This document shows positions 7,581-43,924 of a DNA stretch of 64,000 bases, in pieces. The notes below the pieces were generated by a model. That model was given only the letters and a program-made list of their open reading frames with translations. It had not been told where the DNA came from and did not search any database. The DNA is taken from assembly GCA_030833525.1 (NCBI GenBank), contig JAURGZ010000002.1:3927-67926 (forward strand), given 5' to 3'. The DNA comes from Bacteroidota bacterium (lineage in GTDB: Bacteria; Bacteroidota; Bacteroidia; NS11-12g; UBA955). A program made the position numbers and the translations under genes. How positions within the stretch are numbered: position 1 is the stretch's first letter; the number at the start of each line of letters is the position of its first letter.

Positions 7581-7601
7581 GCAGTTTGAAATTTTGCAAA
7601 G

Positions 7602-7632: not shown

Positions 7633-7633
7633 T

Positions 7634-8854: not shown

Positions 8855-8890
8855 AAAAATAAAAAAGGCGGGGTGTTGAATCACCCCGCC
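8853..8890 (-). terminator. Rho-independent terminator of secDF (minus-strand reading: GGCGGGGTG-attcaa-CACCCCGCC followed by TTTTTTATTTTT)
   Basis: Stem 8867-8875/8882-8890 with a 12-nt A run on the plus strand (8855-8866), 28 nt downstream of the secDF stop. Confidence 0.7.
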
Positions 8891-8917
8891 TTCACGGCAC
8901 CGGCCGTGAGCGGGTTT

Positions 8918-11857: not shown

Positions 11858-11934
11858 TTGTGTTGATTCAAAGAGAATAAATACGGGTCGCGAAAATAAG
11901 CAAAAAATGCTTCCAAAAAGGCCCCAAATCGCGC

Positions 11935-14510: not shown

Positions 14511-15010
14511 GGCTCTACTCCTTCCCGCTTATCCCAATTGGCCCTGAACTCTTGGATTTCGCCACTCGCCAAGGCTTCATCGAAATCAACCCAAAACACA
14601 GTATTGCGAACATCGCCATGCAGATAGACCACTCGAGCCCAGCGCGTTTGCGAATTGGCCGTGGTCAAGGGAACCTCTTCAACCCCTAAAATAACCAGGG
14701 CTTTCCCGGCATACGAGGCTGGCAATTCAGCCGCATCAAAATCACCAGAACGAAAGAAACTTTCAAAAAATCCCTGACCTGTGGCAGTGTCGTATGCTTT
14801 CTCAACGCCCGTAAACCGGGTTTTTCGATAGGCATCAATGTGCACGAAATCCATTCCTTCTCCTCGACTCGAAACACCCAAGATGGCGGTATCGCCGCAA
14901 CCAATCTCCACTTCGACTTGTTCTTCGATTTGGCCAAACAAGGGGAAAATCCCCAACCCGATCAAGCAGCAGATGATTGCGCGCATCGCACGAAAATACC
15001 CTAGGATCAT
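14507..15010 (-). CDS. Hypothetical secreted protein
   Basis: Signal peptide (LIGLGIFPLFGQ). No recognisable motif. Start and stop overlap the neighbours by 4 nt (ATGA), so it sits inside an operon. Confidence 0.4.
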   Translation of the reverse strand: MILGYFRAMRAIICCLIGLGIFPLFGQIEEQVEVEIGCGDTAILGVSSRGEGMDFVHIDAYRKTRFTGVEKAYDTATGQGFFESFFRSGDFDAAELPASYAGKALVILGVEEVPLTTANSQTRWARVVYLHGDVRNTVFWVDFDEALASGEIQEFRANWDKREGVEP

Positions 15011-18370: not shown

Positions 18371-18377
18371 GTACCGC

Positions 18378-18385
18378 AAAGGTAC
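18378..18385 (-). promoter_or_regulatory. Bacteroidota -7 promoter box TACCTTTG (consensus TAnnTTTG), 7 nt upstream of the purL ATG
   Basis: Minus strand reads GTACCTTTGCGgtacATG. An identical 11-mer occurs upstream of the next gene (20570-20580). Confidence 0.4.
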
Positions 18386-18444
18386 AACCTCAATCAGGCC
18401 TTGATGAAATAGTTTTGGACAGGTTTTCCCGATTTAATCGGTTT

Positions 18445-20562
18445 TTAACGCATCAAAAAGACGTTGCCTTTGATGGTGTTGTGGCGCTTCAAATCACCTG
18501 TGATGATGTCATAGCGAAACAGGTATTGATAGAAGCCTTCCATGCAAGGTTCACCATTCGCATTGCCATCCCACTCGAAAGACCCGTTGTCGTTGCTATC
18601 AAACACCTTCTCTCCCCAGCGGTTGTATATGATGAAATACGTGGGGCGCACACCGCGACCGGTGATGGTAAAGGTTTCGTTGCGACCGTCGCCGTTGGGG
18701 GTAAAGGCCGTAGGAATGAACGCATCGCACAGGCCCGATTTGATCGTGACTTGAACCCCGTCTGAAGCCGAACCGCATGGATTGGTCAAGGTCGCTTGGA
18801 AATAGCCGCTGGTGCTGACGTAAATCACCGAATCGGTGCTGCCGTTGTTCCATTGAACCTTCGCGCCGGGCCAACTGGCCTTCAATTGCAACATGGCACC
18901 TTGGCAAATCAAGGTATCTTCGGGCAACTGCACCTTGGGCGAGGTCCCTTCGTAAATCTTAATGGTATCGCGCCATTTGCAGCCGTTGTTGTTCACTTCG
19001 GCCCAATAAAAACCTCCTTTGTTGATGCTGCGAGTGGCTCCTGTAGTAGCATTGTCCCAGGTTACCGTTCCTGTGGCGCCTACGTACAGGGTCATGGATT
19101 TTCCATCGCACACGCTGCTATCCTTACCCAATGAGAATTTGGGAAGGGGAGAAATCGTGATCGACTGCTCGCTCGAGTCGGGGCAAAATGAGTCCTTAAC
19201 CACGTATTTGATTTTTTGCAATCCCGCCACGGTGGGAGAAAAATCAAATCCATTGAAAGAATTGCCGTAGAACTTGCCGTTGGTAGTTTCTGCGGGACTC
19301 AGTGTAATCGCAGGATCCCCCAAGCAAAGAGTGGCGGGAAGACCTGAGAATGAGGGATCGACGTTTCGCTTCACAAAGACCAATACTGTATCAATCGAAC
19401 TGCATCCTTCTGGACTTGAAGCCGCGTGAATGACCGAATAAACCCCGGTGGCGGCGTAGGAATGCGTCACCTTTTTCGCCGTCGAGGTTGTGCCGTCTCC
19501 CAAATTCCAACTGAAAGAACTCAAGCCTGGAAATACGTTATCAAATACAAAACTGTTCGACTTGAAACATTGGATCGAATCGTTGATGGAAATGCCCGAT
19601 GAAGGATCGGGAATCACCCGCACATACATGGAGGTAGTATCGGTACAACCGGTGCGTTTGTTGTCGTAAAGAGTCTCACTTTTATAGCGAATGCGGTACT
19701 TGCCTGGGGCCGGATACACCCTTGTGGGAGTGGGAATGGTCGCACTATCGCCTGGGCCGAAATACCAAGTTCTGATGTATGCCGTTTTGGGCACCTTGGC
19801 CAATTGGGTTTGGTCGTCAAACTTAAACTGATGTCCCACAAAACACTGGGCAGTATCGTTGTTTTGCTCAATGGGAATGGAAACCGGTCTGGGTATGATG
19901 AAAACCGCTTTGGTTGAGGTAAAGTTATCGGTGCAACCCAATGCAGGAGCGGCTAACAGGGTCACCAAGAAGCTACCGCCTTTGGTGTAGACGTGATTGA
20001 CATTTTTACCCGTATCGGTCATACCGTCTTGAAACAACCAAGTGTATTTGATACCGCTGTAAGTGGCCGTGGTTTTGTTGGTAAACTGAACAAAGTTGGT
20101 GTTCTGGCAACTATCGGTATAGGTAAAATCAAAATCCAGAACCAAATTCTGAGTCTTGAAGGTAATGGTCAGATAAGTACTGGTCAGGTAATCGGGAGTA
20201 GCCCCACCGTTGTGTTCATACAGGCGAAACTCGTAGGAAGTGTTCTTCTTCAAGTTGGTGATGTTGACACTGTTGGTAATGTTGTCATACACCACATAAC
20301 TGTTGGTACCCATGTTGGTACCGCTTCCAAAGGCGGCTACCGCTGTGTATTTCGTTCCATCTGAGGGGGTATTGGCTGAACCGCTACCCTCTATCAAAAG
20401 GCCCATTCTCCATGTACCATTTCCCGAAGTCCAAGACAGTTGGGCCGAGGTACAGGTCAAAGTTCCCACCTTGCCGTTGCTGGAAGCAACGGTTGGTTCT
20501 TGTGCCTTTACCGCTGCTGTGGCAAAGAGTGTAAACCAAAGGACTGAAAGGATTTTTTTCAT
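18445..20562 (-). CDS. PKD-repeat protein with T9SS type-B C-terminal sorting domain (gliding-motility-associated CTD)
   Basis: Signal peptide (MKKILSVLWFTLFATAAVKAQ). Repeated GDG/PKD-like modules. C-terminus FTPNGDGRNETF...IYNRWGEKVF...GNVFLMR matches the type-B CTD. ATG at 20562 preferred over the TTG at 20574. Confidence 0.75.
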   Translation of the reverse strand: MKKILSVLWFTLFATAAVKAQEPTVASSNGKVGTLTCTSAQLSWTSGNGTWRMGLLIEGSGSANTPSDGTKYTAVAAFGSGTNMGTNSYVVYDNITNSVNITNLKKNTSYEFRLYEHNGGATPDYLTSTYLTITFKTQNLVLDFDFTYTDSCQNTNFVQFTNKTTATYSGIKYTWLFQDGMTDTGKNVNHVYTKGGSFLVTLLAAPALGCTDNFTSTKAVFIIPRPVSIPIEQNNDTAQCFVGHQFKFDDQTQLAKVPKTAYIRTWYFGPGDSATIPTPTRVYPAPGKYRIRYKSETLYDNKRTGCTDTTSMYVRVIPDPSSGISINDSIQCFKSNSFVFDNVFPGLSSFSWNLGDGTTSTAKKVTHSYAATGVYSVIHAASSPEGCSSIDTVLVFVKRNVDPSFSGLPATLCLGDPAITLSPAETTNGKFYGNSFNGFDFSPTVAGLQKIKYVVKDSFCPDSSEQSITISPLPKFSLGKDSSVCDGKSMTLYVGATGTVTWDNATTGATRSINKGGFYWAEVNNNGCKWRDTIKIYEGTSPKVQLPEDTLICQGAMLQLKASWPGAKVQWNNGSTDSVIYVSTSGYFQATLTNPCGSASDGVQVTIKSGLCDAFIPTAFTPNGDGRNETFTITGRGVRPTYFIIYNRWGEKVFDSNDNGSFEWDGNANGEPCMEGFYQYLFRYDIITGDLKRHNTIKGNVFLMR

Positions 20563-20572
20563 TGGGCTTCGC

Positions 20573-20580
20573 AAAGGTAC
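20573..20580 (-). promoter_or_regulatory. -7 promoter box TACCTTTG, 10 nt upstream of the type-B CTD gene's ATG
   Basis: Minus strand reads GTACCTTTGCGaagcccaATG. Confidence 0.4.
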
Positions 20581-20705
20581 TCAATTAGACACAAATCCTT
20601 CTCCCCTCGTGGCCTATACCCTAGACATTTGACACGAGACAATCTGCGGTGGTATGGATAACTTGGTTTGCGTGAACACCGAGCAGCCCTCAATTTTGAT
20701 ACTGT

Positions 20706-21608
20706 ATGCAAACCCCTACCAGCAAACGCAGAAAACCCAACGGTTGGCCTAGTATATTGAGCTTGACTTCTGTCTTATTCCTTTTGGGCTTGGTGGGTTT
20801 CAGCATTTTGGGATTTCAGGGCCTTTCTGAACGACTGGTTGAAAGCAGCAGCATTGATGTGTATTTCGATGAAAGCAGCAGCCAAGATGACATTGCAGAA
20901 TTTCAACGTTCCTTGGAGCGTGAAACCTGGGTCAAATCGACCAAATTCATTAGCCGCGAAGAGGGATTGCGCCAAATGGGCGAAAAATTTGACACGGAAC
21001 TGATGACCTATGCCGAAAGCGTCAACCTTCCCCTCAGCGTTGAAGTATATCCCAAAGCGGAATTCGCTCAGCCCAACATTTTGTCGGCCAAGGTGCGGGA
21101 ATTGAGGCGTCGTGCCGGCGTAGAAGATGTGCTATACCAGAAGGTTTGGGTCGAACAAATGGCTCAAAATATCAAGCGAATTCAGTTGGGCTTGTTGGTG
21201 CTTGCCATACTCATGACCCTGGTTTCAGCCGGCTTGATCCAAAGCGCAACCCGCTTGGGAATCTATTCCAATCGATTCATTATCAAAAGCATGCAGCTAG
21301 TAGGTGCCACCAATGCCTTCATCGTAAGACCCTTCGTATGGCGCTTCATTCAATATGCTTTGGCTGCCTTTCCCTTGGCTGCAGGGCTGTTGTGGGGCAT
21401 CATTTATGGCATTCCCAGCTTGGACCCCGCCGGTTTATTGAGCGGGCAAGCCGCTTCCTTGTTGGCTGACTTTAATCGTCACATCGTGCCTTGGCAGGCT
21501 GCGGCCATGCTCAGTGCGGTTGGACTATTCGGCATTCTATTGGCCGGGCTTGGCTCTTGGATCAGTACGCGCAAGTATTTGAAGGCAAAAATTGAAAATC
21601 TGTATTGA
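20706..21608 (+). CDS. ftsX: Cell division protein FtsX (permease-like)
   Basis: About 300 aa. N-terminal TM, periplasmic domain and three C-terminal TMs. Conserved ftsX-DUF3098-uppP synteny. Confidence 0.8.
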   Translation: MQTPTSKRRKPNGWPSILSLTSVLFLLGLVGFSILGFQGLSERLVESSSIDVYFDESSSQDDIAEFQRSLERETWVKSTKFISREEGLRQMGEKFDTELMTYAESVNLPLSVEVYPKAEFAQPNILSAKVRELRRRAGVEDVLYQKVWVEQMAQNIKRIQLGLLVLAILMTLVSAGLIQSATRLGIYSNRFIIKSMQLVGATNAFIVRPFVWRFIQYALAAFPLAAGLLWGIIYGIPSLDPAGLLSGQAASLLADFNRHIVPWQAAAMLSAVGLFGILLAGLGSWISTRKYLKAKIENLY

Positions 21609-21646
21609 ATCCTGCCCTCATTTGTTCAAATTTGCAAGCAAACCCT

Positions 21647-21844
21647 ATGAAACAAACGGTATTTACAAAAAAGAATTACATGCTCACCGGCTTGGCATTG
21701 GCCGTAGTCGTGATTGGATTCGTTCTCATGACTGGAACCGAAGGTGACATCTACGATTTTCGCCGCACCACGCTTGCGCCAATCGTCGTTTTGGCTGGAT
21801 TTGGGTTGGGCATTTACGCCATTTTTCACAAAGACAAAGGTTAA
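21647..21844 (+). CDS. Small two-TM membrane protein (DUF3098-like)
   Basis: 65 aa with two hydrophobic helices. Sits between ftsX and uppP, as is usual for Bacteroidota DUF3098. ATG at 21647 preferred over the ORF-track start at 21605. Confidence 0.55.
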   Translation: MKQTVFTKKNYMLTGLALAVVVIGFVLMTGTEGDIYDFRRTTLAPIVVLAGFGLGIYAIFHKDKG

Positions 21845-21847
21845 GCC

Positions 21848-22615
21848 ATGACCTGGCTCGAAAACGTAGGCCTTTCCATTTTGGAAGGCATTACCGAGTT
21901 TTTACCCGTTTCTAGTACCGGCCATCTGATGATGGGCAGCCAATTGTTGGGTTTGGAAGCTGAATCGGTCGACACCTACATCATCAGCATTCAATTTGGG
22001 GCCATTGCTTCGGTGGTTCTGCTGTATTGGGAGCGTTTTTTTGGTCCCAAAGCTTGGCATTTATACACCCGTTTGCTGGCCGGTTTTATCCCGGCTGCCA
22101 TCTTAGGATTGGCCTTTGATGACCTACTGGAGCAACTGCTGCAAACCCCGGCAGTGGTCGGCATCATGCTCATCAGCGTGGGTGTGTTTTTGGTATTCTT
22201 AGACCGCTTGCTTCCCGGTGGTGAGCGCAACCTCGATGAACTATCACACAAAGATGCCGTCATCGTAGGTTTGGTTCAGTGCTTGGCTATGATTCCCGGG
22301 GTCAGCCGCAGCGCCGCTACCATCGCCGGTGGTTTGGGTTGCCGCCTCAGCAAAAAGGCCGCCATGGAGTTCAGCTTCTTATTGGCGGTACCGACCCTGA
22401 GTGCTGCAGGGCTTTATAAGCTGCTCAAGAATTGGGATGCACTCTCGTCTGACGAATTGGTTGATATCGCCTTGGGCAACGTCTTGAGTTTTGCCACAGC
22501 CTTATTCGCCATTCGATTCTTTTTGAAATGGGTAGAACACCGAGGCTTTGCCTTTTTCGGTTTTTACCGAATTGTTGTAGGCGCAGCATTTTTGCTGTAT
22601 CTCGCTTACTTATGA
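21848..22615 (+). CDS. uppP: Undecaprenyl-diphosphatase
   Basis: BacA/UppP motifs (EFLPVSSTGHLM, PGVSRSAATI). 8-TM protein of about 255 aa. Confidence 0.9.
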   Translation: MTWLENVGLSILEGITEFLPVSSTGHLMMGSQLLGLEAESVDTYIISIQFGAIASVVLLYWERFFGPKAWHLYTRLLAGFIPAAILGLAFDDLLEQLLQTPAVVGIMLISVGVFLVFLDRLLPGGERNLDELSHKDAVIVGLVQCLAMIPGVSRSAATIAGGLGCRLSKKAAMEFSFLLAVPTLSAAGLYKLLKNWDALSSDELVDIALGNVLSFATALFAIRFFLKWVEHRGFAFFGFYRIVVGAAFLLYLAYL

Positions 22616-23262
22616 AGAAAATCTTCTGGACCGTTTGCCTCGGCGCTTGGCTATCTATGGGTCAGGGTCAATCACTCAAACTCGCACGGCTGCAGTACGG
22701 CGGCGGCGGGGATTGGTACAGTTCTCGAACCGCTCTGCCCAACCTCAGTCGTTTTTGCAACCAACACCTGAATACCGCCTTTTCCAACCAAGAAGCCGTG
22801 GTTTCTGTAGGCAGCAGTGACCTATTTCAATATCCCTTTTTGTTCTTAACCGGCCATGGAAATCTGGTATTCAGCGCCAGTGAGGCCGATAACCTAAGGC
22901 AATACCTCCTCTCTGGGGGATTCCTTCACATTTGCGACAATTACGGGTTGGATGCCTTTGTTCGCCGCGAAATGAAAAAGGTATTCCCCGAATTGGAATT
23001 TCGCCTGGTGCCTTTTTCTCACCCCATTTACCAAGGCCCCTACTCTTTCCCCAAAGGCTTGCCGAAAGTGCATGAACACGATGGCAAAGCTCCCCAAGGT
23101 TGGGGCCTATTTTGGGAAGACCGCATGGTCTGCTTTTACGATTATCAATGCGATTTAGGCAACGGATGGGAAGACCCTGAAGTATATGATGACCCCGAAA
23201 CGGTTCGCCGCCAAGCCTTGCAAATGGGAGCCAACTTGGTCCACTATGCATTGAGTCAATAA
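22612..23262 (+). CDS. Hypothetical secreted protein (DUF4159-like)
   Basis: ATG overlaps the uppP TGA (ATGA). Signal peptide. My family recall is approximate. Confidence 0.6.
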   Translation: MKKIFWTVCLGAWLSMGQGQSLKLARLQYGGGGDWYSSRTALPNLSRFCNQHLNTAFSNQEAVVSVGSSDLFQYPFLFLTGHGNLVFSASEADNLRQYLLSGGFLHICDNYGLDAFVRREMKKVFPELEFRLVPFSHPIYQGPYSFPKGLPKVHEHDGKAPQGWGLFWEDRMVCFYDYQCDLGNGWEDPEVYDDPETVRRQALQMGANLVHYALSQ

Positions 23263-23288
23263 AAAAGGGGCCGAAGCCCCTTTTTTTA
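23261..23288 (+). terminator. Rho-independent terminator, bidirectional (AAAAAA-GGGGC-cgaa-GCCCC-TTTTTTT)
   Basis: Stem 23267-23271/23276-23280 flanked by A6 and T7. Lies between convergent genes ending at 23262 (+) and 23295 (-). Confidence 0.6.
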
Positions 23289-23294
23289 AATGCC

Positions 23295-24611
23295 TTATCG
23301 AACTTCTCGAATCCAGACTTGCGGCACTAAACCCTCGAAGTAGTACATGCTCTTGTTGGCGTCTTTCTCAGAGCCAAAGTGCTTCACAAATACATAGAAG
23401 CTCTTGTTCTTTGGATCGTACATTTTGTAAGCAATGACATCTTTCTCGTACAAATCTTTGATTTGTTTATTGGCCTTGGCTTCGCTGCTGTGCAAGCCCA
23501 CGACCAAATAGAATCCAGGAGCTGAAGCTACTTTTTCCAAATCAGGCAATTGAATGCCGCTGGTATCGTATCCCAAACCGAAGTTTTCCAAATCTTCCAG
23601 ACTGCGAATCACCGCTTCTTTGCGTACAGCAGCCCCGCCAATTCCCTGATCTTCGTCTAAAGAACCAGAACCTGAACCGTCGCCACTGCCATCGCCGCGA
23701 ACACCGCCGCCCAAAGCCGCAAAGCCCAAGTTCAATTGAAACTCATGCGAGGGGCCCAAGGCTAAGCGAGAAGCCCCACTGGGCGTATTGTACGAATAGC
23801 TAAACTGCATATCGTCTTGGGGTTTGAAGCCCAGATTCGCGCCAATTTGGCCCAAGTTGTTGGCCCCTGCGCCAAACCAGAACATATCTTGGTACCACAA
23901 GCTCACGTTACCTTGAAACAGGTAATAGCTCCAATCGTACGCGTATACATGCAAAGCGGGCTTCAACAACATTTCTGAACCCACCTCAGCTTGGAAACCC
24001 ACCAAGAAATTAGCCTGGGATTGCATATCGTAAGCGGCCGTATAGTTGTAATATGAATAATCAAAGGTGGGCTTAGGCAAACGCGACAAAGAAGCACCTG
24101 CAAACCAATTATCTCCCTTGGCATACATAGAGGCGCGCAGGTCAGCGCGAGTCACAGCCGGTGAAAAGATCAAGGCCTTGATGATAGGGTCATTGTCGTG
24201 CACATAAATCGCCTTAGAGGGGTCAAAGCTCTGGCGCAAGGCACCCACGCTGACTCCCAAAGAAAGGTCGGCAGCATTGCCCAACCCGATGGTATAGGCA
24301 TAGGTGGCATAGGTGTTGTGTGTCTCGGCAAAGCCGTAACGTTCACGCATGTAATAAATGCCAAAGCCTGTATTCTTAGAAGCCATGGGCATGTTGACAT
24401 TCATGACACTGTGCTGGGGGCTTCCGGGCACGTCGGAGAACATTTTGTTGTGAAACAGACTCAAGCCGCCCATTTCCATGTTTCCAACCGCTGCTGGAAT
24501 GATCGAAGCGTGATCCATGTAAAACTGATCCAAGCGAACTCCCATTTGGGCGTTCAAGGGAAGGCCAAGCGCCAAACCCATCAAAGCAATTGTGATTTTT
24601 TTCATGTTCAT
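23295..24611 (-). CDS. PorP/SprF-family T9SS outer membrane protein with a C-terminal SPOR-like peptidoglycan-binding domain
   Basis: N-terminal PorP/SprF-like beta-barrel region (MKKITIALMGLALGLPLNAQMGVRLDQFYMD...). Then a Gly/Ser/Asp linker (GGGVRGDGSGDGSGSGS) and a C-terminal ~75-aa region (GFYLVVGLHSSEAKANKQIKDLYEKDVIAYKMYDPKNKSFYVFVKHFGSEKDANK) resembling SPOR. Confidence 0.65.
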   Translation of the reverse strand: MNMKKITIALMGLALGLPLNAQMGVRLDQFYMDHASIIPAAVGNMEMGGLSLFHNKMFSDVPGSPQHSVMNVNMPMASKNTGFGIYYMRERYGFAETHNTYATYAYTIGLGNAADLSLGVSVGALRQSFDPSKAIYVHDNDPIIKALIFSPAVTRADLRASMYAKGDNWFAGASLSRLPKPTFDYSYYNYTAAYDMQSQANFLVGFQAEVGSEMLLKPALHVYAYDWSYYLFQGNVSLWYQDMFWFGAGANNLGQIGANLGFKPQDDMQFSYSYNTPSGASRLALGPSHEFQLNLGFAALGGGVRGDGSGDGSGSGSLDEDQGIGGAAVRKEAVIRSLEDLENFGLGYDTSGIQLPDLEKVASAPGFYLVVGLHSSEAKANKQIKDLYEKDVIAYKMYDPKNKSFYVFVKHFGSEKDANKSMYYFEGLVPQVWIREVR

Positions 24612-24616
24612 GGGTA

Positions 24617-27600
24617 TTAGCGAATGACTTGGATATAACCGCGGAACTGTTCTCCCGTAAATCGGTTTTTCATGTAGTAGAAATAAATACCATCAGGCAA
24701 AGTCTCACCGTTCATATCAACGGCAGACCAATCGTTTTGGTAATTGGAACTCTGGTAAATCAACTTGCCCTGACGATCGTGAATGTCAATGTCGTACAAG
24801 AACAAGTCTGCCAATTCGATCAAATCCCAAGCGTCGTTCTGACCGTCATTATTGGGCGTAATCAAATTCGGGATTTTCAAGATGGGAGGATCAATGACGG
24901 TCACCAATACAGAGTCGATGTCTGCGCATCCGTTGGAGTCCAAACTATTCAAGTAATACATGGTGGTAGACAAGGGTCTAGCCGTAACCACTGCTTGAGT
25001 GGAGTCATCCAAAGTATTTCCAGGAGACCAAGTAAAGTTCGTTGCCCCACTTGACCACAAAGTGGCGTATTTGCCGCGGTAAATGGTCGTGTCGCTGTAA
25101 GCATTCACTTGTGCGGGCGGGAAAGCCAAAATTTGAACCGAATCTTCGGTGTAACATACAGCACCGACCGAGTAAGCCCTCACTTTGTACCAGCCTTTGT
25201 TGTAGAAACTGCGCACACGCGCCACACTGCTGTCTTTGAGCCAACTAATGCTGTCTCCTCCAATGACCGTCACTTCCAAACTATCGCCTTTGCACAGCGG
25301 TAGCGATCCGTTGTACGAGAAGCTCAAGTCGGGCTTCTGAATGAAGCTCAAGCTTTGGCGAGCGGTATCTGAGCATCCGGCGTCGCTCGTCAACACATAG
25401 GTCACGTCAATAGGACCTACGTTATCGATGTACACCACGGGGCTATCGAGAGACGAAACGGTTCCATTTCCAAAATCCCACAACTTGTAGATGATGGGAT
25501 CTACAGAAGTGCTAGCTGTGTCGTAAAAGTAAATGCTATCGGGAACGCAGATGCCTTCAGTATAGAATTGGGCCACAGGCGAATTTGCCACGGTGTAGGT
25601 TCTGAACATGCTGTCGGCGCAGCCGTGTATGTTTTGAGCAAACAGACGCAGGGTGTAAGTACCGGCAGCCGGGAAAATGTGATCGGTAGAAGTGGCCGGC
25701 AATTCGGTGGTTCCATCGCCAAAATCCCAAGAGGTAAAGCTCATGGTGTCATCAGCATCAAACAATTCTTCTTTGACAAAATAGAAATGGTTCTCATTGA
25801 AACACTGGGTTGAATCGTTAGGCGTCACCAAGGGATCTAAAAAGAAACTCACCTTAGGCAGGTAATATACCCGAATTTGCTCTACCGCTGAGTCTTTGCA
25901 GCCCTCGTTTGAGGTCGCAATCAAGGTCACATCGTGGGCACCAGGGGTATTGAAACCCTTCTTCACCATGGTATCAATGTACTGGGGAGGTGTTTGGTCA
26001 ATGACCCAGTTGTAGATGATTTGGTTGTCGGGAATGGTGGTTGATTTTTTGCGGCGCATGACCGTAGTATCGCCCAAACAAACCTGCTTGGTTGTAAAAG
26101 AAGGCTGAGGTTTTGGATGCACTTTGATCCAATAAGAAGCTGTGTCTTCGCAACCGTCTGTCGTAATGACCTTCAAGGTCGCCTTGTAGGTACCGACTGC
26201 GGCATATTGGTGCGTGGTATTGGGGTAAGTTGAATCGTTGGCAGAGAAATCACCGAAGTTCCACACGTAAATATCGGCTACGGTGTTCTTCAAGTTTGTC
26301 TGATCGTTCGTATTGGTTACCTCGTCCAAGCAGGTGTGGCTGAGGGTAAATTTGGCATCGGGAATGGCATTCACCGTATGGTAGTACTCGGTTGAATCGA
26401 CGCAGCCAAAATCAGAAGTTACCTTCAATTTGATGATGTACACACCGGGTGACGGGTATTTGTAAGCGATGTTTTTATTCAGGTTGTTGGTGATGTTACC
26501 CGTTAGCTTGGGGCTTCCATCTCCACGATCCCATTCCCATGTCTTCACTTTGTCTGGCGCGGGATCTTGAGTGCCGTTGGAATAGAAAGACGTTTTACCA
26601 AAGCAAATGGGATCGCCTCCCGGAGGGAAGTTGATCGCCGGCGCGGGCAAGGAATGCACCAAGTAATCCAAACTATCAATGGCTTTGCAACCCAAGGCAG
26701 TGGTGCGAGTCAAATAAATCTTGTAGTTGCCACCGGCGGCATAAATGTGATTGATGGTTTGAGCAGTCGAAGTGGTCAAATCACCCAAATCCCATTTGCG
26801 CGAGAAAATACTTTCGGGCGAAGGGGGCGTATACGTATCGATGAACAAGGAGGTATCGCCTACGCAAACTCCATTGGTATAGATGTTTTTGTTGAACATC
26901 ACCGTGGGCAATACACCCACGCGAAGGTTGTAGCTAAAGGTATCTTCATCGGTGCTATTGCCTACAATCAAGGTGACGGTATAGTTGCCATAGGCAGCAT
27001 ACTTGCGAAAAATCTTAGCTGGAATACCGGTATTGGTATAAGTCAAGGTATTGCCATCGCCGAAGCTCCATTTCCAATATGTAATGGGAGAAGCGGTACT
27101 CTTCGACAAATCGGTAAAGAAAAATGTATCGCGCTCGCAACGACCCTTGGCCAATTCAAACTTGGAAAACGCATTGGTACTTCCCAATACGTTGACGCCG
27201 TTCTTGACGTTGGCCAGAACAAAAGTCATTTGGGTTTGAAAGGTATTGGTCGCAATTTGGCCTTTTCGATTGGCAGATCCCATGCCGCCGAGATCCACCC
27301 AAGAACCGGCAGGAGCATGACCTAAAATGCGTAAAAAGTTTGCCTCGTATACTTGGTCGTCAGCGGTCACAGAATCATATGAGGCCGTCAACTCAAAATT
27401 GTTTGACGTCCCTGTGGGCAACAATCCCAATTCCCAATAGTGGACCTTTGAAATGTTGCGAATGCCCGTGGGCAATGCCCCTCCCGTTGATGGACCTCCA
27501 CTTTTCACTTCCATGCGGTAGTAAACCAAGCCACTCACCGTCTTATTGAAATTGAGCTGCGTATAGCGGTAGTCTTGGTTGACTCCAATGGGAAAATCCA

Positions 27601-28105
27601 AACTGGTAGCACCGCTGGTCAAACCGATCCAAAGGGCTCCTTTGACAAAACTATTCTTGCTGCCACCCAAGCGCTGAGCACCCGCCATGGTGCGAAAGGC
27701 TTTAGAACCCGTGGTGCTAATGTGGCCCAAGGTCAATTCCAAGGTGTCTTTCACATCGAGGGTATCGCCCGAAACCGTCAAGGTTACACCCGAACCATTC
27801 ATGTGCAAGCTGCGCACTTGAACATTGCTCGAACCGCTGCTGCTCACGGCAAACTCGAGCGACTTGCTCAGGGTAATGGTTTCAGAATAAACTCCGTTGG
27901 AAATGTTAATGACATCGCCAGAAGATGCGATGGCCATGGCTGCATTGATGGTCTTTTTGGGGCCGGTAGTTCCACTGACAAAAGTGGCCGAGGTCCCATC
28001 ATAAGAATCGCTTCCAGAGGTGGAAACATACCATGATGCCCCGAATACCGAGGAGGCTCCCACCCAGCTCAAAAACAAGGCGAGAATTCTAAGTTTTATA
28101 TTCAT
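24617..28105 (-). CDS. Large cell-surface adhesin-like protein with tandem PKD domains and T9SS type-B C-terminal sorting domain
   Basis: 1162 aa. Signal peptide. N-terminal beta-helix-like region (SGDVINISNGVYSETITL). Repeated WxFGDGxT PKD motifs. C-terminus ITPNNDGQNDAW...IYQSSNYQNDWS...GYIQVIR matches the type-B CTD. Immediately upstream of PorP/SprF. Confidence 0.75.
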   Translation of the reverse strand: MNIKLRILALFLSWVGASSVFGASWYVSTSGSDSYDGTSATFVSGTTGPKKTINAAMAIASSGDVINISNGVYSETITLSKSLEFAVSSSGSSNVQVRSLHMNGSGVTLTVSGDTLDVKDTLELTLGHISTTGSKAFRTMAGAQRLGGSKNSFVKGALWIGLTSGATSLDFPIGVNQDYRYTQLNFNKTVSGLVYYRMEVKSGGPSTGGALPTGIRNISKVHYWELGLLPTGTSNNFELTASYDSVTADDQVYEANFLRILGHAPAGSWVDLGGMGSANRKGQIATNTFQTQMTFVLANVKNGVNVLGSTNAFSKFELAKGRCERDTFFFTDLSKSTASPITYWKWSFGDGNTLTYTNTGIPAKIFRKYAAYGNYTVTLIVGNSTDEDTFSYNLRVGVLPTVMFNKNIYTNGVCVGDTSLFIDTYTPPSPESIFSRKWDLGDLTTSTAQTINHIYAAGGNYKIYLTRTTALGCKAIDSLDYLVHSLPAPAINFPPGGDPICFGKTSFYSNGTQDPAPDKVKTWEWDRGDGSPKLTGNITNNLNKNIAYKYPSPGVYIIKLKVTSDFGCVDSTEYYHTVNAIPDAKFTLSHTCLDEVTNTNDQTNLKNTVADIYVWNFGDFSANDSTYPNTTHQYAAVGTYKATLKVITTDGCEDTASYWIKVHPKPQPSFTTKQVCLGDTTVMRRKKSTTIPDNQIIYNWVIDQTPPQYIDTMVKKGFNTPGAHDVTLIATSNEGCKDSAVEQIRVYYLPKVSFFLDPLVTPNDSTQCFNENHFYFVKEELFDADDTMSFTSWDFGDGTTELPATSTDHIFPAAGTYTLRLFAQNIHGCADSMFRTYTVANSPVAQFYTEGICVPDSIYFYDTASTSVDPIIYKLWDFGNGTVSSLDSPVVYIDNVGPIDVTYVLTSDAGCSDTARQSLSFIQKPDLSFSYNGSLPLCKGDSLEVTVIGGDSISWLKDSSVARVRSFYNKGWYKVRAYSVGAVCYTEDSVQILAFPPAQVNAYSDTTIYRGKYATLWSSGATNFTWSPGNTLDDSTQAVVTARPLSTTMYYLNSLDSNGCADIDSVLVTVIDPPILKIPNLITPNNDGQNDAWDLIELADLFLYDIDIHDRQGKLIYQSSNYQNDWSAVDMNGETLPDGIYFYYMKNRFTGEQFRGYIQVIR

Positions 28106-28116
28106 TGGAATGGATT

Positions 28117-28199
28117 CAATTAAAAACGCTGCGTTTTGCTAACGAATTTACTGCCATAAAGACAATTAAAAACAGGTTTGCGTTGCAAACGAGCAAAAC
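28117..28199 (-). promoter_or_regulatory. Repeat-rich upstream region of the adhesin gene: two direct repeats, a 6-3-6 palindrome and an 8-bp inverted repeat
   Basis: Direct repeat CAATTAAAAAC at 28117-28127 and 28163-28173 (46-bp spacing), each followed by G(T)TTTGC. Palindrome GTTTGC-gtt-GCAAAC at 28176-28190. Inverted repeat GTTTTGCT (28133-28140) / AGCAAAAC (28192-28199). All within 12-95 nt of the start codon at 28105. Confidence 0.4.
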
Positions 28200-28230
28200 A
28201 TGATGGTTTATTGACCGCTGGGGCCTAATC

Positions 28231-28608
28231 TTAGAAAGGCAAATCGTCGTCAGCAGAGTCGCTGGCTGAAACATCACCCGCCACGGGCGCTTCTGAAGCG
28301 AAAGGATTGGCCATAGGAGCAGGGGCTGATGCAGGAGAAGCCGCACCGGCAGCTTGCACATTCCACGCTTTCACATCGGTGTACCAACGGCCGTTATATT
28401 CTCGGCTTTCCACATCGATGCTCACAGTCAAATCCTGACCCTCTTGAATGGCGAATTTGGCAATTTTATCGCCCCACAAATTGAAGCACACTTTTTTAGG
28501 GTAGGTTCCGGGAACTTCCAAGATGTACTCTTGCTTTTCCCACACTCCGTTTTTCCCTTGCCCCGTTTGCTTGGGCAGTAATTGCACGACTTTACCAGTA
28601 ATTTCCAT
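28231..28608 (-). CDS. DUF3127-family protein (small, OB-fold-like, acidic C-terminal tail)
   Basis: MEITGKVVQLLPKQTG...KQEYILEV...KKVCFNLWGDKI...VESREYNGRWYTDVKAWNV matches my recollection of DUF3127. Ala/Pro/Asp-rich tail. Confidence 0.7.
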   Translation of the reverse strand: MEITGKVVQLLPKQTGQGKNGVWEKQEYILEVPGTYPKKVCFNLWGDKIAKFAIQEGQDLTVSIDVESREYNGRWYTDVKAWNVQAAGAASPASAPAPMANPFASEAPVAGDVSASDSADDDLPF

Positions 28609-28613
28609 GCAAA

Positions 28614-28621
28614 CAAAAGTA
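28614..28621 (-). promoter_or_regulatory. -7 promoter box TACTTTTG, 5 nt upstream of the DUF3127 ATG
   Basis: Minus strand reads TACTTTTGtttgcATG. Confidence 0.35.
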
Positions 28622-28646
28622 GAACAATTGCCCTACTCCCTATTCA

Positions 28647-31184
28647 CTACATACCCACATCGCCTCCACCGTCTTTCAGGTCGTCGACTTGCAATTTGCG
28701 CTTGACCTTGGGAGTGCGGTCCACTTCGATCTCACCAAATCGGTAATCGAAATTCACGCGAACTCCCCACATGTTGGTGCGGCGAATATCAGAATAATAA
28801 AAATCGGCTCCTTGGGTAAGGGTAACAAAATCGCGGCGAGGCGCCAGCGGATTATCCAATCCGAAGCCCAAACCACCTTTGTCACCGGCGAAACGCTTTT
28901 TTGCGCCGACCATGTGAAAGAACCAGTTGGTGGTCTTTCCTTGCAAGGTAAAATTGGGTGCGTTGAAACGACCAAAGGCTTCCAGCTGCCAATTGTTTTT
29001 CAAGTTCACATTCCCTCTCAAGCCAGCACTGTAGGTAAACCCGCTGTTGCTCACACCCGCCAAAGGACCGGTACTGATTCCAGAGTTGAGGTAAACGTAA
29101 CCCAAACCGCCGTTGAAATTCACCATGTATTGATCGCCTTTGAGGTTCAAATTCAAGTCCATGCCGGTAGTATTGCTAATACCCAAATTCTCATAGGTAC
29201 TGAGAAAAACACCCTCACCGGTGACCCGACCAATGGTTTGTATGGCATTGCCTACTGTGCGGTTGTATACACTCAAGCCCCAACCGCCGCCGCGGCCGTA
29301 TTTGCCCAAATTCAATTCCACGTTGTTGCTCACTTCAGCCTCCAATTCGGGATTGCCTTCAGAAACTTTAAGGGGGTCAGAGGTATTGCGATAGGGGTTC
29401 AAGAAATTCAAGCTGGGACGCTGTATGCGCTGGGTGTAGGTCAAGCGAACGAAACCGCCACGACCTACATTTTTAGATAAGTTCAGATAGGGAATGAAAT
29501 TGGCGTAAGGCTTGCCCACAAAACTGCTGTCGCTGGGCTTTTGCATTCCCCCACCAAACTCGGTAAACTCGTATCGACCGCCGGCCCTCAGGCTCAAGGA
29601 TTTGCTGAAGTTGAACAACATTTGCGCATAGCCCCCATACACGTTTTGGTAATAGGTGAAAGCATTGTTGCGGCTCTCCAACGTATGGTAAAAACTGGTG
29701 GCGTAGTCCAAGGTATCGAAATGATAATCAGAAGCTACATCGCGCAATATGGTCTTGGCTCCCACTTCCAAAACCGCTTTTTTACTGAAAGGCTCGGTGT
29801 AGTCCAACTGGGCAGTCCACTCGCGGTTATCGGCCACGTTTGAACTGATTTCCTGGTAGGGGTTGAATGCGAGGCCGTTCAAGCGATTGGCTTCGTAATC
29901 GGCCAGGTCGCGGTTGTTGGACATTTGAAGGCTGACACCCAACTCACGATCGGCTTTGTCAAATTTGCGGCGGTAATCGATGTTGAAATCAGTACCCAAG
30001 CCTATGCTGTTATTTTGGGCTTCTTGAGACCAACTGAAGTCTAAAGGAGCTTCTTTGATTCCTTGAAGGGTATTCCAATCTTGGTTGGTCCAGCGCATGT
30101 GGCTGCGCAGGGTAGAGCTGACACTCAACCCATTTTTTTCATTGAATTGGTGGTCGAAACTCAGGGTCAAACGAGGACCACCGCCCCAATTGTTGTTGCT
30201 TCCTGTTTGCAACATGGCGTAGGAAACCCCATCGATGGAATTGTAGCGCTCGGTGCGGTAATCGCCCCAAGTGCGCCAAAAATGGCCACCCAATTGAGCA
30301 CTGAAATTGGATTTACCGGTTTGGTGAGACACGTTGCCACTCAAATTGGCACTGCGAGTCCCGATACCCGCCCGAAAATTACCGCTGGTACCCTTGAGCC
30401 GAGACTCTTTCATGATGATATTGATGATACCCGCCGTGCCTTCGGCATCGTATTTGGCTGAAGGATTGGTGATGACTTCGACTCGTTCGATTTCGTCGGC
30501 AGGAAGTGCTCGCAAGGCGTCTGCTACGCTACCGGTCATCAAACCGCTGGGGCGGCCGTTGATGAGCACCTTCAAATTGCGACTGCCTCGAATCGAAACG
30601 TTTCCATCCATATCGACTTCTACCATGGGCACCTTGGCCAAAAGCTCTGAAGCACTGCTACCGCGACTCGTTAAATCTTGAGAAGCGTTGTATACCAAAC
30701 GGTCCACTCGATTCTCTACCACTTGACTCTGGGCTATGATTTCAACCCCTTCTATTTGTTCAACAGAATCCATTGGCTCCCAATTTCGGGGCAATGCAAC
30801 CTTGCCCACTCGGGCAAAACGCTGGCTGTCGCTGAGCGTGAAAAATTTGGTGCGGTAAACGGGGTAGTTGACCGCCAAGACACGCACACGGTAAACCCCA
30901 GGAAATTCAACCGAAAAGCGAAAACGACCGCTGCTATCGGTCAACAGACCGTCAACAATCTTCTGTTCGTCGATGCTAATGAGATCAACAGCCACGAACT
31001 CCAATGGAACTTGGGTAGCAGAATCTACAATAGCACCTGCTACCATGTATGCAGGCATATTAGCTGGGAATCCCCCTGGGCGCATTCCATCGGGGCGTTG
31101 ACCACCTTGTTGAGGCTGAGCCTGTGCCATTCCTACGGTTGCACCTAAACAGGCCAACAACATCCAAGTTCTCCAAAAACGCAT
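28647..31184 (-). CDS. TonB-dependent receptor-like outer membrane beta-barrel protein with N-terminal CarbopepD_reg-like domain
   Basis: Signal peptide. CarbopepD_reg-like segment (GAIVDSATQVPLEFVAVDLI). Plug-like region (RLVYNASQDLTSRGSSASELLAKVPMV...IRGSRN...INGRP). About 600 aa of beta-barrel. Confidence 0.7.
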   Translation of the reverse strand: MRFWRTWMLLACLGATVGMAQAQPQQGGQRPDGMRPGGFPANMPAYMVAGAIVDSATQVPLEFVAVDLISIDEQKIVDGLLTDSSGRFRFSVEFPGVYRVRVLAVNYPVYRTKFFTLSDSQRFARVGKVALPRNWEPMDSVEQIEGVEIIAQSQVVENRVDRLVYNASQDLTSRGSSASELLAKVPMVEVDMDGNVSIRGSRNLKVLINGRPSGLMTGSVADALRALPADEIERVEVITNPSAKYDAEGTAGIINIIMKESRLKGTSGNFRAGIGTRSANLSGNVSHQTGKSNFSAQLGGHFWRTWGDYRTERYNSIDGVSYAMLQTGSNNNWGGGPRLTLSFDHQFNEKNGLSVSSTLRSHMRWTNQDWNTLQGIKEAPLDFSWSQEAQNNSIGLGTDFNIDYRRKFDKADRELGVSLQMSNNRDLADYEANRLNGLAFNPYQEISSNVADNREWTAQLDYTEPFSKKAVLEVGAKTILRDVASDYHFDTLDYATSFYHTLESRNNAFTYYQNVYGGYAQMLFNFSKSLSLRAGGRYEFTEFGGGMQKPSDSSFVGKPYANFIPYLNLSKNVGRGGFVRLTYTQRIQRPSLNFLNPYRNTSDPLKVSEGNPELEAEVSNNVELNLGKYGRGGGWGLSVYNRTVGNAIQTIGRVTGEGVFLSTYENLGISNTTGMDLNLNLKGDQYMVNFNGGLGYVYLNSGISTGPLAGVSNSGFTYSAGLRGNVNLKNNWQLEAFGRFNAPNFTLQGKTTNWFFHMVGAKKRFAGDKGGLGFGLDNPLAPRRDFVTLTQGADFYYSDIRRTNMWGVRVNFDYRFGEIEVDRTPKVKRKLQVDDLKDGGGDVGM

Positions 31185-31192
31185 AGCGGGTG

Positions 31193-31200
31193 CAAAAATA
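31193..31200 (-). promoter_or_regulatory. -7 promoter box TATTTTTG, 8 nt upstream of the receptor gene's ATG
   Basis: Minus strand reads TATTTTTGcacccgctATG. Confidence 0.35.
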
Positions 31201-31204
31201 CGTT

Positions 31205-32473
31205 CTATTTTGAACGCATGGCATCAACGGGATTTAAGCGGGCTGCTGAACGAGCCGGCAAAAAGCCCGATAAAATTCCCACGCCAATCGAAACCAAGAG
31301 CCCCAACAGGGCATCAGAAGCATCCAACCCTATCTCCACCGAGTTGCCCAATGATTGGGCTGCGATGGCTTGTATTCCCATCAGAGTAAGCCCTACAAAC
31401 CCTAGTCCCACTGCACCTCCGGCCGTACACAGCCAGATCGCTTCCAGTAAAAATTGTCGACGAATGAAGGAAGATGGAGCCCCCAAAGCCTTCTGAATTC
31501 CAATTTCCTGGGTTCGTTCTTTTACGCTCACAAACAAGATGTTGGCTACGCCAAAGCATCCGACTAACATCGCAAATGCTCCGATGATCACACCCACTTT
31601 TTGTATTTGAGCGAACAATTGAGTGACGGCTTCGGTTATCATGCTCATGCGGTTAACCGCATAACTGGCCTCTTGGGCAGGACGCTCGTGGCGAATTTGA
31701 CGCATGGTCATTTCAACTTCAGTTTGAAGGTCATCTAACGAAACTCCTTCAGCTGCTTTGATCATAATTTGAGCGTCATCGTTGTTTTTGAAACTAGACA
31801 AACCCAAACCCGTTTTGAGCGGAAGCAAGAGGCTGTTGTCTGCCGAATTATTCAAAATACTAGCTCCTTCTTTTTCGAACACCCCTATGATATGAACGAC
31901 TCCATTCAATATGCGAATGGGTTGACCAATGGGATCTTTGTCTCCAAAAAGGGCTTCAGCTACATCTGCCCCTACAACCGCCACAGCCCTGCCGGCGCGG
32001 CTTTCGGCCGGAGAAAAATAACGCCCTTTGCTCAAGTTCACCTTTTGAATTTCGGCGTAAGCGTGGTCGACGCAGCGAATGGAAACACCATCTACCCGGG
32101 ATTCAGCCGTTTGGACCCCTTTGTTCAAGGAAAAAGAATAGGCAATCGCCGAGGCCCGGTTGGCTGGCAATCGATCGCGCAAAAACTGAGCTTCAGTAGG
32201 AGTAACAATGGGTCGAGACAAATATTTCCACCAGGGGTAATTGCCCCCCATTCCATCCCAGGGCCATTTTTGAACAAACAACACTTCGGTCCCATATTGG
32301 CGAAACTGGTTGTTGATGCTGCGCTCCATGGAATGCACTAGGGCATAGACCGCAATGATGCAATAAATACCAATGGTAATGCCCAGGACCGACAGAAAAC
32401 TGCGCAATTTGTTCTGCCGAATGGCCCGAAACGAAAAGCGAAAGGATTCCAGCCAGGAACTGCCCAGGTGCAT
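31205..32473 (-). CDS. ABC transporter permease, FtsX/MacB/LolE family (no cognate ATPase nearby)
   Basis: N-terminal TM, large periplasmic domain and three C-terminal TMs (FtsX-like permease fold). 422 aa. Confidence 0.75.
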   Translation of the reverse strand: MHLGSSWLESFRFSFRAIRQNKLRSFLSVLGITIGIYCIIAVYALVHSMERSINNQFRQYGTEVLFVQKWPWDGMGGNYPWWKYLSRPIVTPTEAQFLRDRLPANRASAIAYSFSLNKGVQTAESRVDGVSIRCVDHAYAEIQKVNLSKGRYFSPAESRAGRAVAVVGADVAEALFGDKDPIGQPIRILNGVVHIIGVFEKEGASILNNSADNSLLLPLKTGLGLSSFKNNDDAQIMIKAAEGVSLDDLQTEVEMTMRQIRHERPAQEASYAVNRMSMITEAVTQLFAQIQKVGVIIGAFAMLVGCFGVANILFVSVKERTQEIGIQKALGAPSSFIRRQFLLEAIWLCTAGGAVGLGFVGLTLMGIQAIAAQSLGNSVEIGLDASDALLGLLVSIGVGILSGFLPARSAARLNPVDAMRSK

Positions 32474-32539
32474 GGCTCAAAGATACAGGCTTATGGGTTC
32501 GCAGCCGCAGCTGTTTGGACCAACGTGCATCCTTGGCGG

Positions 32540-37018: not shown

Positions 37019-37024
37019 CCACAC

Positions 37025-38023: not shown

Positions 38024-38099
38024 TGGAGCGTATGCATATCGCCATCGGGCGCAAGTGCTTGTACTCCATTCGCTCTAGATTTGGCTATCTTCGTGGGCC

Positions 38100-39574: not shown

Positions 39575-39579
39575 ACCGC

Positions 39580-43900: not shown

Positions 43901-43924
43901 GCGAAAAGCCCATTTTTCGGGTAT

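Follow-up and report, generated by a model that had tools for sequence, protein, structure and literature searches.

Two adjacent genes on the reverse strand make up the locus studied in our window (the whole 64,000-nucleotide stretch of DNA that was analyzed): an ORF at 24617..28105 encoding a 1162-aa type-B T9SS cargo protein, and an ORF at 23295..24611 encoding a 438-aa protein in which a PorP/SprF barrel is followed by a SPOR-like tail. As read from the sequence, their junction is TAA-taccc-ATG, the stop codon of the cargo gene and the start codon of the PorP/SprF gene being separated by the 5-nt spacer taccc (24612..24616, reverse strand). This tight spacing suggests that both genes belong to a two-gene operon, and a similarly tight spacing between cargo and PorP/SprF genes is found in most related loci. 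The DUF4159 gene located downstream (22528..23262, forward strand) is convergent with the PorP/SprF-SPOR gene, thus the putative operon would end at the stop codon of the latter (23295..23297, reverse strand); of 61 related loci, 54 likewise have a convergent downstream neighbour. Since the orthologs of the 438-aa protein begin at MKK in the alignment, the real start of the PorP/SprF gene may be the ATG at 24605, which would give a protein of 436 aa and a gap of 11 nt. The annotated neighbours of the pair in the window (DUF4159, BacA, FtsX, DUF3127 and a TonB-type barrel) include no OmpA-family or PorE-like gene, and an Rfam scan of the window gave zero matches. Another type-B protein, considered as a possible second cargo of this shuttle, is encoded elsewhere in the window (18445-20574), and its CTD is only 31% identical to that of the 1162-aa cargo.

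Cargo and barrel proteins

In the 1162-aa protein, a signal peptide and a ~320-aa N-terminal region without family match precede seven PKD domains and a type-B sorting domain. PKD_4 matched over seven stretches (E 4.3e-56), CHU_C (PF13585) matched residues 1076-1160 with 70.5 bits (GA 27), and the type-B sorting domain model TIGR04131 matched residues 1077-1162 with 52.4 bits (cut-off 35); the type-A sorting model reached 15 bits, under its 23-bit threshold. For residues 1-322 no PDB sequence relative was found, a weak parallel beta-helix hint (E 0.08) being all that this region returned. Sequence evidence establishes this PKD protein as a T9SS cargo, with a Sec signal peptide at its N-terminus and a type-B sorting domain at its C-terminus.

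The signal peptide and barrel of the 438-aa protein occupy residues 1-297 (23721..24611, reverse strand), as delimited by PF11751, TIGR03519, AF2 and Foldseek. The signal peptide was read from the sequence as MNMKKITIALMGLALGLPLNA, ending directly before QMG. PF11751 (PorP_SprF) matched residues 22-293 with 116.8 bits (GA 22.3), covering profile positions 4-271 of 273, and TIGR03519 matched residues 3-295 with 133.4 bits (cut-off 90.55). The AF2 full-length model places 14 strands between residues 48 and 297, and Foldseek ranked FadL first, with the T9SS complex 8gl6 (chain F) in seventh place. Family assignment of the second gene product to PorP/SprF, with a predicted 14-strand FadL-like outer-membrane barrel, is therefore established by sequence and homology.

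The earlier note on this DNA had described a type-B adhesin followed 5 nt later by a PorP/SprF gene, the usual cognate pairing for type-B cargo. Both points are borne out by the family cut-offs passed by the two proteins and by the conservation of the pair, which is kept in 64 of the 64 related loci having the upstream region present, all of them in genomes of uncultured Bacteroidota. It had also remarked that 438 aa is unusually long for a PorP/SprF protein, and we agree: the two family models span 273 and 292 positions and the nearest non-fused paralogs found measure 315-327 aa, thus the protein lies ~140 aa above the usual PorP/SprF length.

Structure of the C-terminal tail

In the full-length AF2 model the barrel (residues ~48-297) is followed by a disordered linker with pLDDT <50 (residues 301-327) and by a folded C-terminal domain with pLDDT ~90 (residues 329-438). 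Taking AF2 pLDDT together with the ortholog alignment, the Gly/Ser/Asp linker, which includes GDGSGDGSGSGS, was delimited to residues ~298-328 (23628..23720, reverse strand); its length ranges from ~20 to ~80 aa among orthologs, and columns ~301-375 of the alignment show many gaps and an abundance of G/S/D/E/N. The folded domain is made of a conserved N-terminal extension (residues 329-363; 23523..23627, reverse strand), recognized in both the alignment and the AF2 model, and a SPOR-fold core (residues 364-438; 23298..23522, reverse strand). The consensus of the extension is R.KEVTV.SL.D...FG.GNDTSGI.LP.I.K, with G345 and D349 invariant, and AF2 models it as a short strand and a helix (tail residues 10-16) with pLDDT ~92; several distant PorP-linked relatives match the tail profile from position 2-7 onward.

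With the tail alone, AF2 gave a model with pLDDT 92.5 and beta-alpha-beta-beta-alpha-beta topology, the strands being located at tail residues 38-46, 67-71, 76-84 and 105-109 and the helices at 49-61 and 87-97. The tail thus displays the RNP-like SPOR fold with its four-strand antiparallel sheet. When this model was compared by Foldseek, the SPOR domain of CwlC came first (prob 1.00), and DedD, RlpA, FtsN and DamX were also among the matches. At the sequence level the query tail scored 15.2 bits against Pfam SPOR PF05036 (E 0.027), under the GA of 21, SPOR being nonetheless its top match; the same Pfam model matched 14 of 27 orthologous tails (best E 2.5e-7), 51 of 75 more distant tail relatives (best E 2.8e-16) and the Spongiivirga citrea homolog (21.5 bits). 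Searches of PDB sequences, by phmmer with the tail and with a profile of 27 tails, did not find SPOR entries, which were found by fold comparison alone. Likewise, hhalign of the tail profile against the single FtsN or CwlC sequence gave a probability of 1-2% and put beta-1/alpha-1 on beta-3/alpha-2, an offset that arises from the internal repeat of the SPOR fold. Taken at the level of predicted structure, the folded C-terminal domain of the 438-aa protein is shown to have the SPOR fold.

The earlier note had expected a SPOR-like domain in the last ~75 aa, to be confirmed by HMM searches and structure prediction. The SPOR-like core of that size and the predicted topology were recovered, and TIGR03519 recognized the barrel as anticipated; the Pfam SPOR model, however, passed its threshold in orthologous tails and not in the query tail itself. 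Moreover, the extra part is larger than the 75 aa it had been given, as the GDGSGDGSGSGS-type linker and the 35-aa segment precede the core.

In FtsN, residues Q251 and R285 (Q270 and R309 in RlpA) touch the lactyl group of MurNAc, and DamX stacks a beta-4 Trp on MurNAc (PMC6895207). These positions were mapped onto the tail through a broader profile to which both FtsN and CwlC align colinearly, the FtsN sequence being checked against 1uta; the beta-1 Gln position corresponds to Val370 and the beta-3 Arg position to Tyr406. In a set of 192 related domains, Val or Ile occupies the first position in 169 and Gln in none, and the second position holds Tyr in 172 and Arg in 6. Y368, Y406 and W433 are invariant in the SPOR-like core, Y406 mapping to the sheet face that binds glycan in RlpA. 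These alignments point to a large Bacteroidota SPOR subfamily in which the ligand-contacting Gln and Arg known from FtsN and RlpA are missing. Because Val370 and Tyr406 replace the contact residues, peptidoglycan binding by the tail is a property that we infer, and canonical denuded-glycan recognition would not be assured, since Val/Ile and Tyr hold the contact positions across the subfamily.

Conservation and spread of the fusion

The tail was found in 58 of 58 aligned orthologs, with a mean column identity of 63%, compared with 58% for the protein overall; it is as conserved as the barrel, hence more than expected by chance. A continuous ORF including linker and tail is present in ~107 full-length protein clusters, and 65 species-level genomes, assembled independently, carry it as well. 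The weak Pfam score of the query tail is the single point that might favor an artefact, in which a frameshift, a mis-assembly or a chance read-through joined PorP/SprF to an unrelated gene; this explanation, whose probability we consider negligible, is ruled out by the number of clusters and genomes, by the identity of the tails and by the fact that the linker alone is variable in length.

PorP_SprF is present in 56 of 75 long representatives matching the tail profile, and the fusion thus occurs in at least 56 divergent protein clusters, one of them from the cultured Spongiivirga citrea; a protein search with a profile of diverse fusions returned 13 proteins, among them one cultured carrier, and the tail profile gave nine short fragments. 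In four divergent fusion clusters the immediately preceding gene codes for a CHU_C-bearing PKD/Ig protein, and the gene tables of those four loci list neither PorE-like nor OmpA-family genes. A small OmpA-family gene lies 3' of the PorP-SPOR gene in 4 of 61 related loci, therefore the fusion can coexist with another wall-binding protein. The tail subfamily is also found in proteins unrelated to T9SS, namely HU-CCDC81 fusions and tandem SPOR proteins.

The earlier note had allowed that PorP/SprF proteins with such a tail might be ubiquitous and already annotated. The architecture is indeed numerous, and many of the proteins match Pfam models for both domains, but the database names of the fusion proteins read 'PorP/SprF family' only, an annotation that leaves the extra domain unmentioned. 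Our literature search found no paper on a PorP/SprF-SPOR fusion.

Comparison with known systems and proposed role of the tail

Recent work in P. gingivalis and F. johnsoniae proposes two fates for type-B proteins, either the gliding machinery or the wall, the latter via a PorP-like barrel and a PorE-like protein (PMC9143113, PMC12618676). PorE bridges PorP to peptidoglycan, and non-mobile type-B cargo has been proposed to be wall-anchored via PorP-PorE-like complexes; SprB/SprF is described as having no PorE-like gene beside it, SprB itself being mobile along the cell (PMC9143113). The static or gliding destination is set by pairs of type-B CTD and shuttle (PMC12618676). Both PorP-PorE-PG1035 of P. 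gingivalis and the set formed by Fjoh_3952 (cargo), Fjoh_3951 (SprF-like shuttle) and Fjoh_3950 (PorE-like) resemble our locus in having a type-B cargo on a cognate barrel that is linked to peptidoglycan in the periplasm, an arrangement that is predicted in our case, and in the gene order, with the cargo first and the shuttle next (PMC9143113, PMC12618676). Unlike in PorP-PorE, where PorE is a separate lipoprotein, the presumed wall module here continues the barrel at its C-terminus; a SPOR fold replaces the OmpA_C-like domain of PorE, and the TPR, beta-propeller and CRD of PorE are absent. PorP/SprF-SPOR is thus a variant of the known PorP-type system. With SprB-SprF of F. johnsoniae it shares the adjacent cargo and PorP/SprF genes and, as predicted, the recognition of a type-B CTD and surface retention, while it differs in that the shuttle carries a built-in, probably wall-binding domain and the cargo is a 1162-aa PKD protein and not a giant SprB-repeat protein.

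Compared with the canonical SPOR domains of FtsN, DamX, DedD, RlpA and CwlC, the tail shows the same ~75-aa C-terminal fold placed behind a flexible linker on an envelope protein. However, it remains below the Pfam cut-off, has Val and Tyr for the MurNAc-contacting Gln and Arg, bears an additional 35-aa N-terminal segment, and is attached to an outer-membrane barrel, where the canonical domains sit on division proteins of the inner membrane or on lytic enzymes. E. coli OmpA is an outer-membrane barrel of eight strands followed by a flexible linker and a periplasmic wall-binding OmpA_C domain. The same general design of barrel, linker and periplasmic wall-binding domain is predicted for the 438-aa protein, although here a 14-strand FadL-like PorP/SprF takes the place of the 8-strand barrel and SPOR that of OmpA_C, and the barrel is dedicated to a secretion system.

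We propose that the pair is probably a two-gene T9SS module for a statically anchored adhesin, in which the SPOR-like tail ties the cargo-loaded barrel to the wall. Following SprB-SprF, PG1035-PorP and Fjoh_3952-Fjoh_3951, the cargo would be exported by Sec, pass through the SprA/Sov translocon and be handed to its cognate PorP/SprF shuttle, which would hold it at the cell surface via the cargo CTD. Since both termini of an even-stranded barrel lie on the periplasmic side, the extension would be located in the periplasm, as a disordered linker of ~30 aa and a folded domain of 110 aa. The SPOR-like domain would bind glycan strands of peptidoglycan by its exposed beta-sheet face, through the invariant Y406 and probably also Y368 and W433, and this binding would tie the cargo-loaded barrel to the cell wall. 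A single polypeptide would in this way do the job that PorP shares in P. gingivalis and F. johnsoniae with a distinct lipoprotein binding peptidoglycan (PorE or one of its relatives), and the 438-aa protein is best read, by analogy, as a counterpart of the PorP-PorE wall tether made of one polypeptide. Such a tether, which we infer, is plausible and consistent with the published PorP-PorE models (PMC9143113, PMC12618676). For CHU2221, a SPOR domain of the Bacteroidota member C. hutchinsonii, a Kd of about 0.8 uM for denuded glycans has been measured (bioRxiv 10.1101/2022.07.01.498525). With the fusion, the adhesin would be assigned to the immobile cargoes anchored to the wall and not to those of the gliding track.

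A SPOR-fold tail could also exist without peptidoglycan binding, as a protein-protein module docking the shuttle to the GldK/N (PorK/N) ring, to GldJ or to SprA/Sov, or as a binder of some other periplasmic polymer, a reading that we consider unlikely. The subfamily-wide replacement of the FtsN/RlpA contact Gln and Arg by hydrophobic or aromatic residues would fit it; nevertheless, many relatives score above the Pfam SPOR threshold though they lack the Gln, and the invariant residues are aromatic, with Y406 on the glycan-binding face of RlpA and the Trp stacking of DamX as a precedent. PorP has been reported touching PorK, and SprB/SprF co-purifies with GldJ (PMC9143113), while the conserved extension packs on the domain and has no counterpart identified in the SPOR domains compared; yet the top-ranked named structural matches are peptidoglycan-binding SPOR domains and not ring-building domains, and a T9SS-specific protein partner is disfavored by the occurrence of the subfamily in T9SS-unrelated proteins. 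On the other hand, were the tail a true denuded-glycan binder it might serve for spatial targeting, concentrating shuttle and adhesin at division septa and new poles. All SPOR domains characterized so far, one Bacteroidota domain included, are reported to go to the septum via peptide-stripped glycan strands (PMC6895207; bioRxiv 10.1101/2022.07.01.498525), and the fold assigned by AF2 and Foldseek is consistent with such a role. Even so, we regard it as decidedly unlikely: the ligand-contact residues differ, hence a specificity for denuded over ordinary glycan is not given, and capture at the septum may be inefficient for an outer-membrane barrel, which would diffuse slowly.

It is also conceivable, though in our estimate rather unlikely, that the Gln-less SPOR-like tails on PorP/SprF proteins form a separate functional class, which would recognize something other than denuded septal glycan and add to 'gliding track' and 'PorE-anchored' a third destination code for type-B proteins, with anchoring strength tuned by how many SPOR repeats (one to three) are present. 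The ligand of such a class may be a protein of the T9SS or gliding machinery, a periplasmic polymer of another kind, or Bacteroidota peptidoglycan in its intact or a chemically modified form.

Returning to the wall tether, our preferred reading, the fusion is independent 'Rosetta-stone' evidence for the wall-fixed route of type-B cargo. It is found in many divergent lineages and lies right after a type-B cargo gene at every locus examined. The SPOR fusion is a simple sequence marker that could predict immobile adhesins, and the gene pair offers a minimal two-gene system for testing wall anchoring, with Spongiivirga citrea as a cultured carrier.

The gene pair and its conservation

Two ORFs were called on the minus strand, at 24617..28105 (1162 aa) and 23295..24611 (438 aa), and the junction sequence (...CGC TAA taccc ATG AAC ATG AAA...) displays the 5-nt gap described in the earlier note. 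The 438-aa ORF starts with MNMKK and, since MKK is where every ortholog begins in the alignment, translation may really start at the second ATG (24605, minus strand), giving a 436-aa protein; the 93%-identical relative P0001, a database cluster representative, is also 436 aa long. The 1162-aa protein contains seven PKD_4 stretches (Pfam, E 4.3e-56) and a C-terminal CHU_C domain (70.5 bits, residues 1076-1160); the type-B sorting domain attributed to it was recognized by the NCBIfam model TIGR04131 above the curated cut-off (52.4 vs 35 bits), while the type-A sorting model stayed below threshold (15 vs 23 bits). Its first ~320 residues matched no Pfam family, and the sole hint from a PDB sequence search with them was a parallel beta-helix protein, weakly matched at E 0.08. 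The 438-aa protein passed the PF11751 (116.8 bits) and TIGR03519 (133.4 bits against a cut-off of 90.55) models over residues 3-295, in agreement with the PorP/SprF identity proposed for it.

Scanning one genome per GTDB species, 65 loci with a homolog of the 438-aa protein were obtained, all of them in MAGs of uncultured Bacteroidota, for many of which the sample name refers to a lake or river. In 61 of them, a large ORF whose C-terminal domain (CTD) is homologous and of type B ends directly before the PorP-SPOR gene, and in 3 more the same CTD lies ~150-170 nt upstream; as the contig end truncates the last locus, leaving it uninformative, the pair is conserved in 64/64 informative loci, the arrangement that the earlier note had considered usual for type-B cargo. 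The operon consists of two genes, because the downstream gene is convergent in 54/61 loci; in 32 of those it is a DUF4159 gene, as in the window (22528..23262, plus strand), for which no functional link to the pair is evident. Four loci (L016, L018, L020 and L022) have a 212-aa OmpA-family gene (PF00691, 43.9 bits; L016:2090-2728, plus strand) just downstream of the PorP-SPOR gene and on the same strand, which could encode another wall-binding protein of that operon.

The genes around the pair in the window encode FtsX, UppP/BacA, DUF3127, TonB-type barrel, MacB/FtsX-like and TamB-like proteins, and no Rfam RNA family was found in 1..64000 at gathering thresholds. A second type-B CTD protein (18445..20574, minus strand; 709 aa, with PKD, fn3 and CHU_C, the latter at 56.5 bits) is followed by purL and lacks an adjacent PorP/SprF gene; between its CTD and that of the 1162-aa protein, identity is only 31%.

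The C-terminal extension as a divergent SPOR-like domain

PF11751 and TIGR03519 have 273 and 292 positions respectively, and the closest paralogs found without the fusion measure 315-327 aa, so that by this comparison the 438-aa protein is ~140 aa longer than usual. The extension recognized in the earlier note is thus present, although the ~75 aa assigned to it make up only its core. For the full-length protein, an AlphaFold model based on 58 orthologs predicts 14 strands at residues 48-297, a region of pLDDT <50 at residues 301-327 and a well folded C-terminal domain (pLDDT ~90); in Foldseek, FadL ranked 1, and rank 7 went to one chain of 8gl6, a T9SS complex assembled in vitro. The 58-sequence alignment showed a linker of variable length, composed largely of G, S, D, E and N residues, followed by a 110-aa domain conserved as well as the barrel.

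Pfam SPOR was the top match of the query tail yet under threshold (15.2 bits, E 0.027, GA 21), and no solved SPOR domain was found by sequence with the tail alone or with a profile of 27 orthologous tails. The same family was matched by 14 of these 27 tails (best E 2.5e-7) and by 51 of 75 longer relatives that the tail profile had retrieved (best E 2.8e-16), and the model of residues 329-438 (pLDDT 92.5, pTM 0.85) presents a short helix followed by strand, helix, strand, strand, helix, strand. Given relatives that pass Pfam and a matching predicted fold, we take the tail to have a SPOR fold and to be homologous to the Pfam SPOR family, weak though the sequence evidence from the query alone is.

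FtsN requires Q251, S254, W283, R285 and I313 for septal localisation, of which Q251 and R285 (in RlpA, Q270 and R309) touch the lactyl group of MurNAc (Alcorlo et al., PMC6895207). Residues were mapped with a profile of 192 domains that the tail profile had retrieved; this new profile aligns FtsN (SPOR sequence identical to PDB 1uta) and CwlC (sequence obtained in part) colinearly. Q251 corresponds to Val370 (Val or Ile in 169 of the 192 domains, Gln never), R285 to Tyr406 (Tyr in 172, Arg in 6) and W283 to Ser404, a variable position where Tyr is commonest (58); the beta-4 Trp (W433) is kept in 159/159 domains covering that position, and Tyr occupies the position of Y368 in 181/192. Judging from this alignment, the subfamily keeps the SPOR fold but lacks both polar residues through which FtsN and RlpA contact the ligand; Y406 maps to the sheet face that binds ligand, where Y368 and W433 probably also lie. 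Because both contacts are missing, peptidoglycan binding by the tail is something that we infer. For one Bacteroidota SPOR domain, that of C. hutchinsonii CHU2221, tight binding to denuded glycan has been measured (Kd ~0.8 uM; bioRxiv 10.1101/2022.07.01.498525). The Gln-less subfamily also occurs outside PorP/SprF proteins (among cluster representatives P0146-P0250), in two or three tandem copies or fused to HU-CCDC81_bac domains, the latter in 6/75 scanned proteins.

Proposed role and alternatives

An even-stranded barrel places both termini in the periplasm, and a linker of ~30 aa could span ~10 nm when extended, across which the SPOR-like domain would reach the wall. On these grounds the pair is most likely a static-adhesin module whose wall anchor is built into the shuttle. 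Demonstrated for it are family assignments, fold, conservation and gene order; we infer that the tail lies in the periplasm, that it binds the wall and that the cargo is immobile. Gorasia et al. demonstrated a complex of PorE, PorP and PG1035 as well as binding of SprF to SprB, and proposed that a PorP-like barrel alone holds mobile type-B cargo, non-mobile cargo being further wall-anchored via PorP-PorE-like complexes; six F. johnsoniae porP-like genes adjoin porE-like genes and sprF does not (PMC9143113). According to a 2025 study, type-B CTD and shuttle pairs decide between gliding and static destinations (PMC12618676).

The absence of Gln and Arg from the tail subfamily, together with the reported PorP-PorK and SprF-GldJ contacts, favours a protein-protein module or a binder of a different periplasmic ligand, which we regard as unlikely. 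Septal or polar targeting by the tail, a variant of the wall-anchor reading, seems somewhat less probable still. That the fusion ORF arose as an assembly artefact is excluded by its conservation, and we give this practically no credence. The observation of the earlier note is confirmed and its interpretation is supported, with two caveats: the tail is a SPOR relative that has diverged and lacks the Gln, and the fusion is widespread, not unique. The fusion, a variant of an already known system and not very surprising to a T9SS specialist, lends independent support to the wall-anchoring route of type-B cargo.

Distribution of the PorP/SprF-SPOR fusion

Among 1.84 billion representative proteins, the tail profile gave 142 matches at E <= 1e-3, and for 51 of these a PorP model derived from the 438-aa family placed a barrel on the N-terminal side of the tail. 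Pfam found PorP_SprF in 56 and SPOR in 51 of the 75 longest matches, and therefore both in at least 32. Lengths range over 416-1067 aa, and in some proteins the SPOR-like repeat is present two or three times. The architecture is common and Pfam-visible. The ~107 full-length cluster representatives of the 438-aa protein (39-93% identity, 425-470 aa), all from metagenomes or MAGs, are named at most 'PorP/SprF family', and the fusion is of value as an annotation fix. The refuting case of a ubiquitous and already annotated tail applies in part, since such proteins are numerous and Pfam detects both domains in many of them. Full-text searches on SprF/PorP/T9SS with SPOR found no paper discussing it. 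Spongiivirga citrea is a named-species carrier (473 aa, NCBI and UniRef entry; PorP_SprF 129 bits, SPOR 21.5 bits vs GA 21).

Four divergent fusions (P0255, P0155, P0229 and P0199) each lie directly after a PKD/Ig protein with CHU_C, with no OmpA-family or PorE-like gene in the gene tables of their loci; two already carry precomputed PF11751 and PF05036 labels. In a further locus (L066:1097-15886), a PorP/SprF protein of 776 aa whose tail is SPOR-like is encoded between two type-B cargo genes, one for a 1485-aa Ig-rich protein and the other for a 3953-aa SprB-repeat protein, the latter overlapping the end of the shuttle gene.
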